DNA from: Escherichia phage ID2 Moscow/ID/2001
Sequence record: NC_007817.1
Strand: one strand, 5' to 3'
DNA length: 5,486 nucleotides
Positions 62 through 5,486 of the stretch are shown in pieces. Position 1 is the stretch's first letter; each line of letters starts with the position of its first letter. The notes under the pieces are model-generated. The model had not been told where the DNA came from. It did no database searches and worked only from the letters and a program-made list of their open reading frames with translations. The translations under genes were made by a program, and so were the position numbers.

Positions 62-1723
62 ATGCAACAAGCTAGTGACTTCTACAACAAACCACATATC
101 GACGCTATCAAACCACTCGTTGAAACCGCTGGTATGTCTGTGCTTTCTCAATCTCCAAACCTCCGTATCTGGAAACAGGTAAATTCCCGTATCAAACTAT
201 TGGAAGAAATCCTTGCTCATTACACCAATGGCATCCGCCGTGATGACAACGGCGACTTCTGGATGAATCCCAATTCTCAACTCGCAACCACAATTGCCTA
301 TCGTGCCCATCAAAAAGGACACAACCCAAAACTCATTCAATACCCTGATACATTCACTCTGGATGACATCATCCGTAAAAAGCCATTACCACAAAACGCT
401 CCTGACGAATTAAAACTCTCCGATGAAATCGGGGAAGACTATCGCCTTACAATCATCTCTCTAATCGAAGAAATGCAAGAAATCTACGACGTGCTCGGAC
501 AACTTGATATTAATAACACTATAGACCACAAACCTATCGGTAACGCCCACTGGAATCTACTCTATGAAAAACCTGTATATAAACACTGGTATGAACTGGT
601 ATCAAAACGACCCCTTAAATCAATCAGAGACGACTACAACTATGCAAAGGCTAAGGGTATTAAGGATGAATGCTCGAAAATCCTTGAGGAATCCACCATG
701 AAATCACGTAGAGGCTTTACCGTACAAAGACTAATGAATGCTATGCGCACTGCCCACACTGAGGGCTGGTACGTTGTATTCGATACTCTTACTCTCGCCG
801 ATGACCGCCTTAAGGATTTCTATGATAATCCCAATGCTCTCCGTGACTATTTCCGTGATATTGGTCGTATGGTTCTCACTGCCGAGGGTCGTTCTGTCCA
901 TGATTCATCTTCGGACTGCTATCAGTATTTTTGTGTGCCTGAGTATGGCACCCAGCACGGCCGTTTACATTTTCACGCAGTGCACCTTATGCGCACACTT
1001 CCTCTGGGTTCTATCGACCCTAACTTTGGCAAGCTGGTGCGTACTAATCGGCAAATAAATAGCTTGCAAAATACATGGCCCTATGGTTACTCTATGCCCA
1101 TCGCGGTCCGGTACTCCCAAGACGCATTTTCGCGCGCTGGCTGGCTCTGGCCCGTTGATACAAAGGGCGAACCTCTTAAAGCTACCTCGTATATGGCTGT
1201 CGGCTTCTACGTCGCTAAATACGTTAACAAAAAATCAGATATTGACATGGCCTCTAAAGGTCTAGGGAATAAAGAATGGAACAATTCACTCAAAACCAAA
1301 ATCAACCTGCTGCCCAAGAAAATTTTTCGCATCAGGATGTCTCGCAACTTCGGAATGAAGCTGCACACAATGAGTCACCTCTCAGCGGAAACTCTAATCC
1401 AACTGACCCAAGTGGGCTACGACGTGACCCCGTTCAACAACATCTTGAAGCAGAACGCCAAGAAAGAGCTACGATTGAGGCTGGCAAAGAAATCTGTCGC
1501 CGACGTTTTGGAGGCGCAACCTGTGACGACCAATCTGCTAAAATTCATGCGCAATTTGACCCGTCAAATCGGAGTGTCCAACCTGCAGAGTTTTATCGCT
1601 TCAATGACAACGAAATTAACAAGTATGGATATTTCTGATGAAACCAAAAACTACGTTGATACTGCAGGAATTACTGCTACTCACTTACGAATTAAATCGA
1701 AGTGGACTGCTGGTGGAAAATGA
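62..1723 (+). CDS. A: Replication initiation protein A (HUH rolling-circle endonuclease). Start at ATG 62 preferred; the longest ORF begins at ATG 32.
   Basis: ORF 32..1723 (563 aa). It carries the HUH motif HFHAV (H at 968-970 and 974-976) and the catalytic tyrosine pair in YVAKYVNK (Y codons 1208-1210 and 1220-1222), both as in phiX174 gpA from memory. The C-terminal ~340 aa align closely with phiX174 A. ATG 62 has a GGAGG Shine-Dalgarno at 48-52 with 9-nt spacing; ATG 32 has no recognisable SD. Confidence 0.85.
500..529 (+). other. Viral (+) strand origin of rolling-circle replication, conserved 30-nt gpA recognition/nick site
   Basis: CAACTTGATATTAATAACACTATAGACCAC at 500-529 is, from memory, identical to the phiX174 30-nt origin. 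The expected gpA nick is between G506 and A507. It lies inside gene A, as in phiX174. Confidence 0.85.
698..1723 (+). CDS. A*: A* protein, in-frame internal initiation within gene A
   Basis: In-frame ATG at 698 begins MKSRRGF, the same residues that begin phiX174 A* as I recall it. GAGGA SD at 686-690 with 7-nt spacing. Product 341 aa, sharing the A stop. Confidence 0.6.
1276..1638 (+). CDS. B: Internal scaffolding protein B, overprinted inside gene A in another frame
   Basis: 120-aa ORF, the same length as phiX174 B. Shares the conserved C-terminal block [10 protein letters not shown]...QPAEFYRF...GYF with phiX174 B from memory. AGGGA SD at 1264-1268, 7 nt upstream of the ATG. Confidence 0.9.
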
Positions 1724-1808
1724 AGAAATTCAATCTGAACTTAAAAAATTCGAGAAGCTCTTACTTCGCCACCTTTCGCCATCACCTGAACGTACTGGCA
1801 AAGACTGA
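1638..1808 (+). CDS. K: Protein K, small ORF spanning the A/C junction in the third frame
   Basis: Not in the ORF track (56 aa). ATG 1638 overlaps the B stop as TGATG. Hand translation: [56 protein letters not shown], stop TGA 1806-1808. Same length and similar sequence to phiX174 K as I recall it (..[25 protein letters not shown]..). Confidence 0.7.
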
Positions 1809-1974
1809 CGCTCTCGACGAGGAAAAATACCTAAATATGCTAGGTGCTCTCCTCAAGGACTGGTTCCGTTACGAAGAACATTTCGTACATGGTAAACAAT
1901 CAATGCTTGACTTATTAAATGAACGTGGACTATTATCCACATCAACAACCAACCCAAAAGGAAATACAAAATGA
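1720..1974 (+). CDS. C: Protein C (switch from dsDNA replication to ssDNA synthesis and packaging)
   Basis: ATG 1720 overlaps the A stop as ATGA. 84 aa beginning [21 protein letters not shown], close to phiX174 C ([21 protein letters not shown]) from memory. The track ORF 1702..1974 starts at an upstream GTG; the ATG at 1720 is the homologous start. Confidence 0.85.
1907..1936 (+). promoter_or_regulatory. Candidate sigma70 promoter P_D, inside gene C upstream of D
   Basis: -35 TTGACT at 1907-1912, 18-nt spacer, -10 TATTAT at 1931-1936. Predicted TSS near 1943, about 28 nt before the D ATG, similar to the leader length I recall for phiX174 P_D. Confidence 0.4.
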
Positions 1975-2426
1975 ACTCTAACGAATCTGCTGTTGCCTTC
2001 GCTACTGCTCTCGCATCTATCAAGCTCATTCAGGCTTCATCTGTGCTGGACCTGACCGAAGACGACTTCGATTTCTTAACCCGTGACCGTGTATGGATTG
2101 CCACTGACCGCTCCCGTGCTCGCCGCGCTATTGAGGCCTGCGTATATGGTACATTGGACTTTGTCGGATACCCTCGCTTTCCTGCTCCTGTTGAGTTTAT
2201 TGCTGCCGTCATTGCTTATTATGTTCATCCCGTTAACATCCAGACAGCATGTCTTATTATGGAAGGCGCCGAGTTCACCGAAAATATTATCAATGGTATT
2301 GACCAGCCAGTTAAGGCCGCTGAACTATTCGCTTTTACCCTGCGTGTACGCGCCGGAAACACTGACCATGTTACACATGCAGAAACTAACGTACGTGAAC
2401 AATTACGTGCTCAAGGAGTAATGTAA
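1971..2426 (+). CDS. D: External scaffolding protein D
   Basis: 151-aa ORF (phiX174 D is about 152 aa). ATG overlaps the C stop as ATGA at 1971-1974. AAGGA SD at 1958-1962 with 8-nt spacing. Position and size fit the canonical gene order. Confidence 0.92.
   Translation: MNSNESAVAFATALASIKLIQASSVLDLTEDDFDFLTRDRVWIATDRSRARRAIEACVYGTLDFVGYPRFPAPVEFIAAVIAYYVHPVNIQTACLIMEGAEFTENIINGIDQPVKAAELFAFTLRVRAGNTDHVTHAETNVREQLRAQGVM
2146..2421 (+). CDS. E: Lysis protein E (MraY inhibitor), overprinted in the +1 frame of D
   Basis: Internal ATG 2146 of track ORF 2083..2421 gives 91 aa: MVHWTLSDTLAFLLLLSLLLPSLLIMFIP... The N-terminal transmembrane segment is nearly identical to phiX174 E (MVRWTLWDTLAFLLLLSLLLPSLLIMFIP) from memory, including Pro21. 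GAGG SD at 2133-2136 with 9-nt spacing. Confidence 0.85.
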   Translation: MVHWTLSDTLAFLLLLSLLLPSLLIMFIPLTSRQHVLLWKAPSSPKILSMVLTSQLRPLNYSLLPCVYAPETLTMLHMQKLTYVNNYVLKE

Positions 2427-2506
2427 TGGCTAAAGGCTCTCGTCGGCGTTCGCCGTCCCGCTCTAAAGGTGCTCGCCTCTGGTATGTTGGCGGCACACAA
2501 TTCTAA
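2426..2506 (+). CDS. J: Small basic DNA-binding/packaging protein J
   Basis: Not in the ORF track (26 aa). ATG 2426 overlaps the D stop as TAATG. Hand translation: MAKGSRRRSPSRSKGARLWYVGGTQF, stop TAA 2504-2506. Strong AAGGAG SD at 2413-2418 with 7-nt spacing. Highly basic, with the ARLWYVGGTQF C-terminus I recall from G4-type J. Confidence 0.85.
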   Translation: MAKGSRRRSPSRSKGARLWYVGGTQF

Positions 2507-2545: not shown

Positions 2546-3829
2546 ATGTCTAACGTTCAAACTTCCGCTGACCGCATTCCTAACGACCTTTCTCACCTCG
2601 TCTTCGAGGCTGGTAAAATCGGCCGTTTAAAAACTATCTCCTGGACTCCAGTTGTCGCTGGCGACTCATTTGAAACTGAGATGGTAGGCGCTATTCGCCT
2701 TTCTCCACTCCGTCGCGGCCTTGCCGTCGACTCTCGCGTGGATATCTTCTCTTTCTATATTCCGCATCGTCATATCTATGGTCAAGAATTCATTGAATTC
2801 ATGAAAGCTGGCGTTAATGCCACTCCTCTCGCACCTGTTACTACTGCCTCTGGCTGGGATGCTTCTGCCTATCTTGGCACTATTCCATCCTCAAACCTCA
2901 AGGTTCCTAAATTCTTACATCAAGGATACCTTAATATTTACAACAACTACTTTAAGCCACCGTGGGATGCTGACCTTACATACGCTAACCCATCTAACAT
3001 GCCTGAACAGGATTATAAATGGGGCGTTCGTGTCGCTAACTTAAAATCTATCTGGACCGCCCCCTTACCTCCTAACTCTAAAACATCAGAGACTATGACC
3101 ACTGGCGCTACGTCTATTGATATTATGGGCCTGCAAGCTGCTTATGCTAAATTGCACACCCAACAAGAACGTGACTACTTCATGACTCGCTATCGCGATA
3201 TTATGAAAGACTTCGGAGGTCACACCTCCTATGACGGTGATAACCGTCCTCTGCTGCTTATGCGCTCTGAATTTTGGGCCTCTGGCTATGACGTCGACGG
3301 TACTGACCAATCCTCTTTAGGTCAGTTCTCCGGTCGCGTCCAACAAACATTCAATCACAAAGTACCTCGCTTCTATGTACCTGAACACGGCGTCATTATG
3401 ACTCTCGCCGTTACTCGCTTCCCTCCTACTCATGAAATGGAGATGCACTATCTTGTCGGTAAAGAATCTTTAACCTATACCGACCTCGCCTGCGACCCTG
3501 CTCTTATGGCTAACCTGCCTCCGCGCGAAGTATCCCTTAAGGAATTCTTCCACTCCTCGCCGGACTCCGCTAAGTTCAAAATTGCCGAGGGCCAATGGTA
3601 TCGCACGCAGCCTGACCGCGTCGCATTCCCTTATAACGCACTTGACGGCTTTCCTTTCTACTCTGCTCTGCCGTCTACTGACTTAAAACAACGTGTCCTA
3701 GTTAACACTGATAACTACGACGAAATCTTTCAGTCTATGCAACTCGCACACTGGAATATGCAAACTAAATTTAATACTACCGTCTATAGACATATGCCTA
3801 CGACTCGTGATTCAATCATGACGTCATAA
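2546..3829 (+). CDS. F: Major capsid protein F
   Basis: 427-aa ORF, the same length as phiX174 F. The N-terminus MSNVQTSADRIPNDLSHLVFEAGKIGRLKTISWTPVVAGDSFE matches G4/phiX F from memory. AAGGA SD at 2535-2539 with 6-nt spacing. Confidence 0.95.
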   Translation: MSNVQTSADRIPNDLSHLVFEAGKIGRLKTISWTPVVAGDSFETEMVGAIRLSPLRRGLAVDSRVDIFSFYIPHRHIYGQEFIEFMKAGVNATPLAPVTTASGWDASAYLGTIPSSNLKVPKFLHQGYLNIYNNYFKPPWDADLTYANPSNMPEQDYKWGVRVANLKSIWTAPLPPNSKTSETMTTGATSIDIMGLQAAYAKLHTQQERDYFMTRYRDIMKDFGGHTSYDGDNRPLLLMRSEFWASGYDVDGTDQSSLGQFSGRVQQTFNHKVPRFYVPEHGVIMTLAVTRFPPTHEMEMHYLVGKESLTYTDLACDPALMANLPPREVSLKEFFHSSPDSAKFKIAEGQWYRTQPDRVAFPYNALDGFPFYSALPSTDLKQRVLVNTDNYDEIFQSMQLAHWNMQTKFNTTVYRHMPTTRDSIMTS

Positions 3830-3840
3830 AGCCTATAACG

Positions 3841-3878
3841 TGACAGGGGGAAAAATTTTAATTTTTCGCCCCCTGTCA
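3841..3878 (+). repeat. Extended inverted repeat/hairpin in the F-G intergenic spacer; candidate complementary-strand origin and/or T_F terminator
   Basis: TGACAGGGGG (3841-3850) is the perfect reverse complement of CCCCCTGTCA (3869-3878). The 18-nt AT-rich interior (AAAAATTTTAATTTTTCG) can itself pair AAAAATT with AATTTTT. It is the only long perfect stem in the window and sits in the 99-nt F-G spacer. Confidence 0.6.
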
Positions 3879-3928
3879 GGTTGAACAAGCGCAAGCGCGT
3901 TAGCTGCCTAACTTAAAAGGAAATTCAA

Positions 3929-4468
3929 ATGTTTCAGAAATTCATCAAAAAACATAACGCTCCGTTAACTTCTCAGCCCGCTATCTCTAAGGCTGTTACT
4001 CCATCTATGACCGCCGCCCCTCTTGTCACTACACCTCTCGGCGTGTCTTCTACTCAATTATTCTTGGAACTTACAACCACTGCCGCCGCTGGCGGCTTCG
4101 CTTACGCTATCCGCGTAGACAATTCTAACCCTACTGATAATCAGGTCTTCTCCGTCTGTGCTCACATCACATCTGACGTGGACCCTAAATATATTGCGTG
4201 CCTCGTTCGCTTTGAGGTCACTGCTGGTACCACTCCTACCGCTATGCCTCCTGTCTATGATGCTTACCCTATCGCTGGTTACTATGACGCTGGCTCTTAT
4301 ACTGTTGAAGACTGCGCTACTATTCCTACTCACGCTGTCTCTTCTGGCAACGATGTATATGTCGGCCTTATGCTTTTCTCTCGCATGTGGCCCGTTGCAA
4401 AACTATCCGGTATCGCTTCCCTTAATCAGGTAAACAAGGAAGTAACCGTTCTCCAACCTCTTAAATAA
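3929..4468 (+). CDS. G: Major spike protein G
   Basis: 179-aa ORF in the canonical position after F (phiX174 G is about 175 aa). AAGGA SD at 3917-3921 with 7-nt spacing. Ser/Thr/Ala-rich composition typical of the beta-barrel spike protein. Confidence 0.9.
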
Positions 4469-4478
4469 GGTATTCTCT

Positions 4479-5486
4479 ATGTTTGGTGCAATCGCTGGCG
4501 GTATCGCCTCATCTCTTGCTGGCGGACTCATCAACAAAGCCTTTGGGGGCGGTCAATCCGCCTCCTCTACTGGCGTTCAAGGTGATGTCCTCGCTTCTGA
4601 CAATAACGTAATCGGTGCTAATGATGCTGGTATCAAATCCGCTATTCAAGGCTCTAATCCACCCAATGGCCAACAAGCTGCTCCCAATGCTATTTCGGGC
4701 GTTCTCGCTGACACTGGCAAAGACGCCCTATCTTCAATCACTGGCGCTGGCGTTAATAAACTTATGGAAAAAATCGGACTATCTAAAACTGCTGCTGATA
4801 AAGGCAAGGACACAAAGGATTATCTTGCTTCTGCATTCCCCGACCTCAACCCGTGGGAACGTGCTGGCGCTGGTGCTTCGTCTGCTGGCATGGTTGACGC
4901 TGGCTTCCAAAACCAAAAAGAATTAACCCGCATGCAGCTTGACAATCAAAAAGAAATCGCTAAGATGCAAAACGACACACAAAAGGATATCGCTGGTATC
5001 CAATCTGTCACATCCCGGCAAAATACTAAGGATGCTGTCTATGCTCAAAACGAGATGCTCGAATATAACCAAAAAGAATCTATGTCACGCGTTGGCTCTA
5101 TTCTCGAAAACACAAGCCTCACCAAACAACAACAAACTTCTGAAATTATGCGGCAGATGCTTACTCAAGCTCAAACCGCAGGTCAACATTTTACAAATGA
5201 CCAAATCAAAGAACTTACACGAAAAGTTGGTGCTGATATTGATTCTGTCCGCGCTAACACTGACCGTACACATGTAGAAACTCAACGCTCAAAACAGGAA
5301 GTTCAAAACTCTCGTTATGCTTCCTCACAAGTCGGTAAAACCGCTAAGGATGTCTCTAATGCAGTTACTGATACAGCTAGTTCTATTGTTGATTATTTTC
5401 GTGGTATTGATAACAAAGTGGCAGACGCTTATAACAACTATTTCAAAGATGGTAAATCCGACGGAATCGGGTCGAACATCAAATAA
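4479..5486 (+). CDS. H: Minor spike / DNA pilot protein H
   Basis: 335-aa ORF (phiX174 H is about 328 aa). Gly-rich hydrophobic N-terminus [25 protein letters not shown] followed by a long Gln/Lys-rich, coiled-coil-like region. TAAGG SD at 4466-4470 overlaps the G stop. The ORF stops on the last base of the window. Confidence 0.9.

Follow-up and report, generated by a model that had tools for sequence, protein, structure and literature searches.

Microviruses are a textbook case of overprinting, and any long open reading frame (ORF) in a second frame of their genes therefore raises the question of a hidden gene. The genes E and K are leucine-rich +1 products of genes with T-rich third codon positions that became real membrane proteins, so composition on its own cannot exclude a function. 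The lysis gene E resembles the second-frame ORFs of phage ID2 treated here in several respects: it lies in the +1 frame of its host gene, and its leucine-rich, hydrophobic product stems from the T-rich third positions of that gene. It is annotated with 91 aa, a size similar to that of the 112-codon ORF altH2 within gene H. B and K are, like altH2, nested ORFs, and the constraint exerted by B is confined to its C-terminal half. However, both start at conserved ATG codons, unlike the ID2 candidates at the start codons first assigned to them. A further element embedded in a coding region is the viral-strand origin ori(+) in gene A, where nucleotide conservation is short, sharp and independent of the frame.

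Experimental results on this class of ORFs are available for phiX174. Simultaneous disruption of 71 of 82 conserved cryptic ORFs left the phage viable, and the multiply disrupted phage had a fitness defect that originated in H expression and that a single synonymous change could suppress; by mass spectrometry, the sole peptide from a cryptic ORF was the 23-aa ORF75 (Jaschke et al. 2019, PNAS; PMC6883844). Synonymous recoding of H fragments of phiX174, carried out one by one, was about neutral (PMC7881332). The ID2 candidates belong to the same class, namely alternative-frame ORFs that are conserved among Bullavirinae and have no product or function, and a 203-codon +1 ORF in phiX174 H is the positional homologue of altH1 and part of altH2. 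However, the cryptic ORFs found to be dispensable by synthesis and proteomics are those of phiX174, whereas the ID2 ORFs lie in a G4-like genome.

The window analysed in our study is the complete, circular genome of ID2 (5486 nt), a G4-like microvirus (Bullavirinae, Gequatrovirus). It shares 97.7% identity with FL76 and FL68 across the full length and 96% with ID204, except for one segment without an alignment at that threshold. Gene coordinates were obtained by transferring the FL76 annotation onto the ID2 genome and are listed together with the ORFs under study in Table 1. For the G protein, the identity to gpG of phage ID2 is 100%. Within the G4-like group the G gene behaves as a swapped cassette: FL76 and FL68 alone are close (98%), and all other G genes show at most 61% amino-acid identity to ID2 G.

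Table 1. Genes, second-frame ORFs and the synonymously constrained core of the ID2 genome.
Feature	Coordinates	Strand	Remarks
A	62-1723		FL76 transfer; host gene of altA
A*	starts 698		FL76 transfer
B	1276-1638		FL76 transfer; +2 frame of A
K	1638-1808		FL76 transfer; +1 frame of A/C
C	1720-1974		FL76 transfer
D	1971-2426		FL76 transfer
E	2146-2421		FL76 transfer; +1 frame of D
J	2426-2506		FL76 transfer
F	2546-3829		FL76 transfer
G, major spike protein	3929-4468	+	FL76 transfer; Pfam Phage_G, E = 5e-48
H, DNA pilot / minor spike protein	4479-5486	+	FL76 transfer; Pfam Microvir_H, E = 1.5e-137
altA	738..1058	+	ATG, 106 aa, +1 frame of A; judged non-functional
altG	4158..4433	+	GTG, 91 aa, +1 frame of G; judged non-functional
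altH1	4615..4926	+	GTG, 103 aa, +1 frame of H; judged non-functional
altH2	4939..5277	+	TTG, 112 aa, +1 frame of H; not conserved as defined
altH2 sub-ORF from internal ATG	5041..5277	+	78 codons; some chance of translation
Antisense ORF opposite G	4058..4333	-	91 codons; internal control for chance ORFs
Synonymous-constraint core in H	~5079-5170 (~90 nt)		O/E 0.12-0.18; overlaps altH2

The four ORFs reported by the sequence-only reading of this genome, altG, altH1, altH2 and altA, were confirmed with their coordinates and start codons by the ORF listing, and altH1 and altH2 proved to be one frame that is split by a single TAA at 4924. Their products had been described as rich in leucine, in good agreement with our counts for altG (31 of 91 residues), altH1 (28 of 103) and altH2 (24 of 112). 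Pfam and PHROG searches with all alternative products gave nothing above noise. Convincing SD sequences had been found to be lacking, and for the start codons then assigned this holds true: the duplex energies are -3.7 kcal/mol for altG, +0.5 for altH1, +0.2 for the TTG of altH2 and -0.9 for altA, compared with -4.0 to -9.5 kcal/mol at 10 of the 11 known gene starts and -3.1 at K. It does not hold for the ATG at 5041 inside altH2, which had been overlooked. This codon is preceded, 8 nt upstream, by TAAGGA at 5027-5032 (-5.8 kcal/mol), a value that lies among the top 9% of all start codons and is comparable to those of D, E (-5.6), F and G.

The composition of the host genes offers a simple explanation for the length of these frames. 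The middle base of a +1 codon is the third base of the host codon, so that a stop in this frame (TAA, TAG or TGA) requires a host codon of the type N-T-A or N-T-G followed by a purine. The host genes favour codons ending in T or C, and H is in addition poor in amino acids whose codons have T as the second base. With few potential +1 stop sites, it is normal for about 100 codons to pass without a stop, and the alternative products are rich in Leu, Ile, Phe and Ser because the T-rich third base of the host becomes the second base of the alternative codon. The genome had been called T-rich, which is only approximately correct (A 27.5, T 26.7, C 26.7, G 19.1%); it is better described as poor in G. 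The assumed codon bias does exist in the form of T/C-rich third positions, with a share of T+C between 0.66 and 0.78. Gene H contains 15 N-T-(A/G) codons among 335, nine of them ATG, and three +1 stops, and the mean spacing of these stops, 112 codons, equals the observed ORF length. For G, 15 of 179 codons are of this type and five +1 stops are present.

The lengths were compared with those in shuffled host genes, using for each gene 2000 codon permutations and 2000 shuffles of synonymous codons with the protein kept fixed and scoring the longest ORF per alternative frame. No excess of ORF length over the shuffled genes was found for altG, the altH frames or altA (P = 0.06-0.50). In detail, P values for permutation and synonymous shuffle were 0.06 and 0.16 for altG (91 aa), 0.39 and 0.50 for the longest +1 ORF of H (112 aa), and 0.06 and 0.07 for altA (106 aa). 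The same null identified the positive controls, B in A with P <= 0.001 and E in D with P <= 0.002, values that set both genes apart from the candidates. The antisense frame of G, with P = 0.15-0.40 for its longest ORF, is likewise in the range of the shuffles, and its 91-codon ORF shows that such sizes come about by chance.

For the analysis of conservation, H and G genes were collected from 20 annotated Bullavirinae genomes, from IMG/VR and metagenome contigs, and from Logan, ENA and NCBI contigs. The latter were located via protein searches and gave useful extra lineages. A metagenome scan for H genes returned mostly copies of the phiX174 spike-in. Openness of a frame was scored against a neutral redraw, in which, for each relative, the codons that differ from ID2 were redrawn from the codon usage of the gene itself. 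The real overlapping genes clearly exceed this expectation, with E open in 12 of 12 relatives (2.4 expected) and B in 12 of 12 (3.4 expected). Negative controls behaved differently: the two longest +1 stretches of F were open in one relative each (2.1 and 3.8 expected, n=11), and the stretch 5278-5484 of H in one (7.1 expected, n=12).

An interruption of the candidate frames by stop codons in close relatives had been anticipated, and for altG and altA this was indeed observed. Stops interrupt altG in 17 of 21 non-identical G genes. The nearest of these (58-61%) carry two to five +1 stops within altG and have GCG at the position of the start codon, which is GCG, CAG, CCG or CTG in most G genes. 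Identity in the alternative frame (0.22-0.40) is below that in the host frame, and the redraw predicted 0.4 open frames where none was observed. A reduced synonymous rate of the host gene, named beforehand as a mark of a genuine second gene, is likewise missing over altG, where an O/E of 1.36 indicates no constraint. For altA, the frame is open in one relative and broken in the other 11 of 12 (2.2 expected). Both ORFs fail every feature of E/K/B-type genes tested here, namely a length and a conservation above expectation, a suppressed synonymous rate of the host gene, and a start codon that is conserved and preceded by an RBS.

The anticipated interruption did not occur in the H frames, which are open in G4-like genomes. 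Their openness there approximates the prediction of the neutral redraw, save for altH1, the one candidate that is nominally above it. The frames are open in the relatives because the H protein sequence and the codon preferences were inherited, and not because of selection on the frame. However, of 28 possible synonymous changes in 4615-5277 that would create a stop, none was seen in G4-like genomes, compared with about 17-24% in controls, and this result counts against an explanation of the H frames as by-products. In alpha3-like phages, H carries 9-10 +1 stops.

In 18 of 19 G4/lillemer-like relatives altH1 is open, compared with 9.8 expected, and as these relatives share ancestry, the joint probability of this observation lies between about 0.006 and 0.35. 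The frame is broken by two to three stops in alpha3-like phages and fused into the 203-codon ORF in phiX174-like phages. Its start shifts among lineages (GTG 4615, TTG 4612, ATG 4624, GTG 4621 and TTG 4483). The host synonymous rate, for which a reduction had been proposed here as well, has a mean O/E of 1.15, and no window of 20-25 codons falls below 0.85. Apart from its openness among related lineages, altH1 therefore fails the tested features of E, K and B.

In nine relatives, namely the lillemer-like lineages and the contig UViG_3300045988, the part of altH2 that follows the TTG start is cut by +1 stops, which lie at 4957, 5008 or 5020. In other groups stops occur at 5149/5191 (alpha3-like phages) and at 5215/5245 (phiX174-like phages). 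As a whole, altH2 is open in 10 of 19 relatives (9.8 expected), and its stop-to-stop stretch in 11 of 12 (8.5 expected). A reduction of the host synonymous rate over altH2 was found only in part: the mean O/E is 0.61, and the decrease is restricted to a core of about 90 nt, outside of which it is absent. Of the features of E, K and B, altH2 shows just a local trough of the synonymous rate, the cause of which is ambiguous, and this trough is its only E-like signal.

Taken together, the +1 ORFs in G, H and A are very probably non-functional by-products of the codon composition of their host genes; the base composition, the shuffle nulls and the patterns of conservation and synonymous rate are what we observed, and we infer that the ORFs are not translated. 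The preference expressed in the sequence-only reading for a compositional artefact over an overprinted gene is supported by the tests of length, openness and synonymous rate. With B, E and K as internal positive controls, the analysis shows that the composition of the host genes G, H and A by itself gives rise to ORFs of this size (90-112 codons), a result which guards against over-annotation, and the combination of codon-shuffle nulls, the neutral-redraw openness test and the synonymous-rate scan provides a recipe that can be reused. More interesting than the ORFs is the core of extreme synonymous conservation in H of G4-like phages.

The scan by which this core was located takes, for each codon column, the synonymous difference between pairs of sequences and relates it to the value expected for that amino acid in that pair, as derived from non-overlapped regions, in windows of 20-25 codons. 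It misses none of the known embedded elements of the genome. The 30-nt ori(+), present as an exact match at 500-529, lies in a trough at 452-571 (O/E 0.40). O/E is 0.34-0.48 at the B start together with its upstream region, 0.16-0.25 over the C-terminal half of B, and 0.03-0.11 where K overlaps. E depresses the synonymous rate of D exactly at its start and transmembrane segment (O/E 0.40 at 2151-2225), whereas altG, altH1 and altA cause no such depression. No scan window in F and G is below 0.65.

With a depth equal to that of the B and K overlaps, the core accounts for the whole signal of altH2. Column permutation gave P = 0.0004 for its longest run of codons free of synonymous variation, and the synonymous difference is 0.04-0.24 compared with 0.11-0.61 in the flanking segments. 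In all G4/lillemer pairs compared except one, the core lies below its flanks. Alpha3-like phages show no such reduction, and in comparisons of G4-like phages with phiX174 it is weak. To our knowledge, no known G4 element maps to this core, and a literature search for such an element, or for a promoter, within H found none.

Most likely, the frozen core reflects a constraint on the nucleic acid or a recombinational sweep in the G4/lillemer lineage, and a second protein is the less likely cause. We regard it as rather probable that the core is due either to a cis-acting element or to a past recombinational sweep or gene conversion, independent of any ORF. The sharp edges of the constraint ignore the ends of the ORFs, and lineages with +1 stops or loss of the SD still retain most of the core. 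In being short, sharp and frame-independent, the core is comparable to ori(+); however, the two share no sequence similarity at <= 3 mismatches, and the core is restricted to the G4/lillemer lineage. Possible candidates for a cis-acting element are a single-stranded C/A-rich tract bound by a protein or by ribosomes, or else an antisense transcript, whose promoter and 5′ portion would lie here. Very little G occurs in the tract (…ATTCTCGAAAACACAAGCCTCACCAAACAACAACAAACTTCTGAAATTATGCGGCAGATGCTTACTCAA…), which is predicted to be unpaired on the plus strand. A promoter-like site on the minus strand (TTGAGC-18-CATAAT, 5174-5145) adjoins the core, and low-level antisense transcription has been described in G, H and A of phiX174 (bioRxiv 10.1101/2020.03.05.979765). 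On the other side, the -35 element of this site varies among the relatives. Upstream of the core, a promoter-like site is present also on the plus strand (TTGACA-16-TAAGAT, 4939-4966, 10/12 match), and neither of the two sites is evidence of function.

A structured RNA or ssDNA element at the core was rejected. Folding against shuffles yielded z values of +0.26 for plus-strand RNA, -0.52 for minus-strand RNA and -1.05 for ssDNA, none of them significant, and at E <= 1 Rfam gave no match to the core. An antisense RNA of 75 nt, considered as a candidate, also folded no better than shuffles (z -0.48). Across the whole genome, Rfam returned merely two sub-threshold snoRNA matches, which we consider as noise. 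Neither a complementary partner nor a repeat of the core was found within the genome, and there was no match to E. coli. These results speak against a structured or pairing element. An ORF on the minus strand (5085..5285) was also rejected as the cause of the constraint; it lacks an ATG start and is interrupted at 5178 in both ID18 and lillemer.

With regard to a sweep or gene conversion, two haplotypes of the core are common to otherwise divergent backgrounds, which demonstrates sequence exchange. Together with the cassette-like swap of the G gene in the G4-like group, this shows that recombination is active and makes a sweep or gene conversion a live alternative to functional constraint. However, no comparable trough is present in the non-overlapped genes F and G, so that sweeps are not common here.

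A second protein would offer a different explanation of the core. According to this reading, the segment from ATG 5041 to 5277 would be a young, lineage-specific, overprinted twelfth gene of the G4/lillemer-like phages with an RBS of its own and a predicted product of 78 residues. Translation of the late mRNA that carries H would yield a basic, leucine-rich protein, and the nucleotides 5079-5170 would be frozen by purifying selection on some 30 residues in the centre of this protein. If true, such a gene would explain why the freezing of this part of H is limited to one lineage. In agreement with it, the core lies downstream of ATG 5041 and its good SD, AAGGA and the ATG are kept in all relatives but UViG_3300045988, where the SD is lost by a change of AAG to AAA, and the depth of the trough is that of B and K, with a partial coverage of the ORF as in E and B. 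Furthermore, the trough is absent in alpha3-like phages, in which the frame contains the stops mentioned above. The frame ATG5041-5274 is open in 18 of 19 relatives; yet, with 16.7 expected, this is what chance predicts. ERZ27284553 has two independent +1 stops within the core, at 5119 and 5149, and ERR3179686 shows a change of P to L and another of L to P in the alternative frame of the core. The first ~13 and the last ~35 alternative codons vary freely while H is nearly invariant.

In the alternative frame, those core variants that recur in several lineages correspond to K<->R and N->S, which is in favour of a second protein. A stratified BLOSUM test, which asks whether the observed host-synonymous changes are conservative in that frame, gave z = 3.5 for 5041-5277. 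However, the same test yielded 2.5 for the negative control A 62-697 and no more than 1.6-2.0 for B, K and E, which are real genes; since the negative control also scores, we consider the test as poorly calibrated and rejected it as decisive. A zinc-finger-like pattern of cysteines in the altH2 product was discarded too: all four Cys codons are forced by Met codons of the host gene and the pattern is therefore no evidence. Considering in addition that the product matches no Pfam or PHROG family and that the annotation of phiX174 was shown to be complete by synthesis (PMC6883844), we judge a twelfth gene to be improbable.

Finally, we hold it for highly improbable that the +1 frames of H are translated at low level as unselected proto-genes, a raw material for overprinting with no current function, since they show no synonymous constraint and mass spectrometry in phiX174 reported no cryptic-ORF peptide beyond ORF75, even though the frames are long, open in G4-like and phiX174-like phages and located on abundant late mRNA, the ORF75 peptide of phiX174 was detected in a cell-free system, and the ATG codons at 4621/4624 show moderate SD-like pairing (-4.9 and -5.3).

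Synonymous sites are almost invariant in a sharp-edged block at 5079-5170 of gene H (4479-5486), which encodes the DNA pilot protein. In this frozen core, the synonymous-rate scan gave an observed/expected ratio (O/E) of 0.12-0.18, a trough equal in depth to those at the B and K overlaps. The tract is G-poor and without structure, and the frozen core is limited to G4-like and lillemer-like phages. Two weaker troughs (O/E about 0.5-0.7) were detected in the 3′ part of H, at 5214-5260 and 5334-5450. The latter may be related to the gene A promoter region, and around 5244-5300 synonymous diversity is low in alpha3-like phages too, as judged from three sequences only. The scan itself is validated by the known viral-strand origin inside gene A, which matches a trough at 452-571.

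Real nested genes constrain their hosts only partially, as seen in the D/E and A/B overlaps. E constrains D just at the E start and the N-terminal transmembrane segment (2121-2225), and B constrains A in the C-terminal half of B only (1397-1638); along the remaining parts of both nested ORFs the host synonymous rate is not lowered. The mechanical ORFs of two genes begin upstream of the annotated starts: for E at GTG 2083 (annotated ATG 2146) and for A at ATG 32 (annotated start 62).

In the A* part of gene A (737-1306), synonymous diversity is low all along (O/E about 0.35-0.8), with very little variation at the amino-acid level. Yet the second-frame ORF altA (738-1058), which lies under this stretch, is interrupted in 11 of 12 relatives. 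Possible causes of the low diversity are a younger common ancestor, the sequence that precedes B or some other constraint.

Two promoter-like sites were found within H. The plus-strand site is unchanged across G4-like genomes and not present in phiX174. Its -35 hexamer supplies the TTG 'start codon' of altH2, the second-frame ORF (4939-5277) that overlaps the frozen core, and the site lies about 75 nt upstream of a Shine-Dalgarno-like TAAGGA with an internal ATG (5027-5043). The minus-strand site is directed antisense into the frozen core. For phiX174, low-level antisense transcription in G/H/A was reported (bioRxiv 10.1101/2020.03.05.979765). A search for significant structure in the candidate 75-nt antisense RNA from the minus-strand site found none. 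The usual Lys codon in H is AAA (19 versus 6 AAG), against which Lys-Asp dipeptides are encoded AAG-GAT at 4812, 4980, 5028 and 5347. This spelling creates four Shine-Dalgarno-like AAGGA motifs, two of them followed by an out-of-frame ATG (5041, 5359).

Sequence elements located in the window
Element	Position	Strand	Remarks
Viral-strand origin, phiX174-type	500-529		30 nt, exact copy CAACTTGATATTAATAACACTATAGACCAC; inside gene A
Inverted repeat	3837-3882		19 nt, 84% complementary, 8-nt loop; F-G spacer, directly after F stop
Sigma-70-like site TTGACA-16-TAAGAT	4939-4966	+	10/12 match; top scorer in G-H region
Promoter-like site TTGAGC-18-CATAAT	5174-5145	-	inside H

The major spike gene G (3929-4468), a swapped cassette, shares 98-100% identity with G of FL76, FL68 and ID2, and the next closest G genes, from PJNS002 and metagenomic contigs, are 58-61% identical. 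Compared with ID204, G shows only 39-41% amino-acid identity, whereas the rest of the genome is about 96% identical (H 98%). This discrepancy points to an exchange of the host-recognition module by recombination. The F-G spacer is shorter in the window than in G4 proper (99 nt versus about 136 nt), and its inverted repeat is probably a terminator or complementary-strand-origin hairpin.
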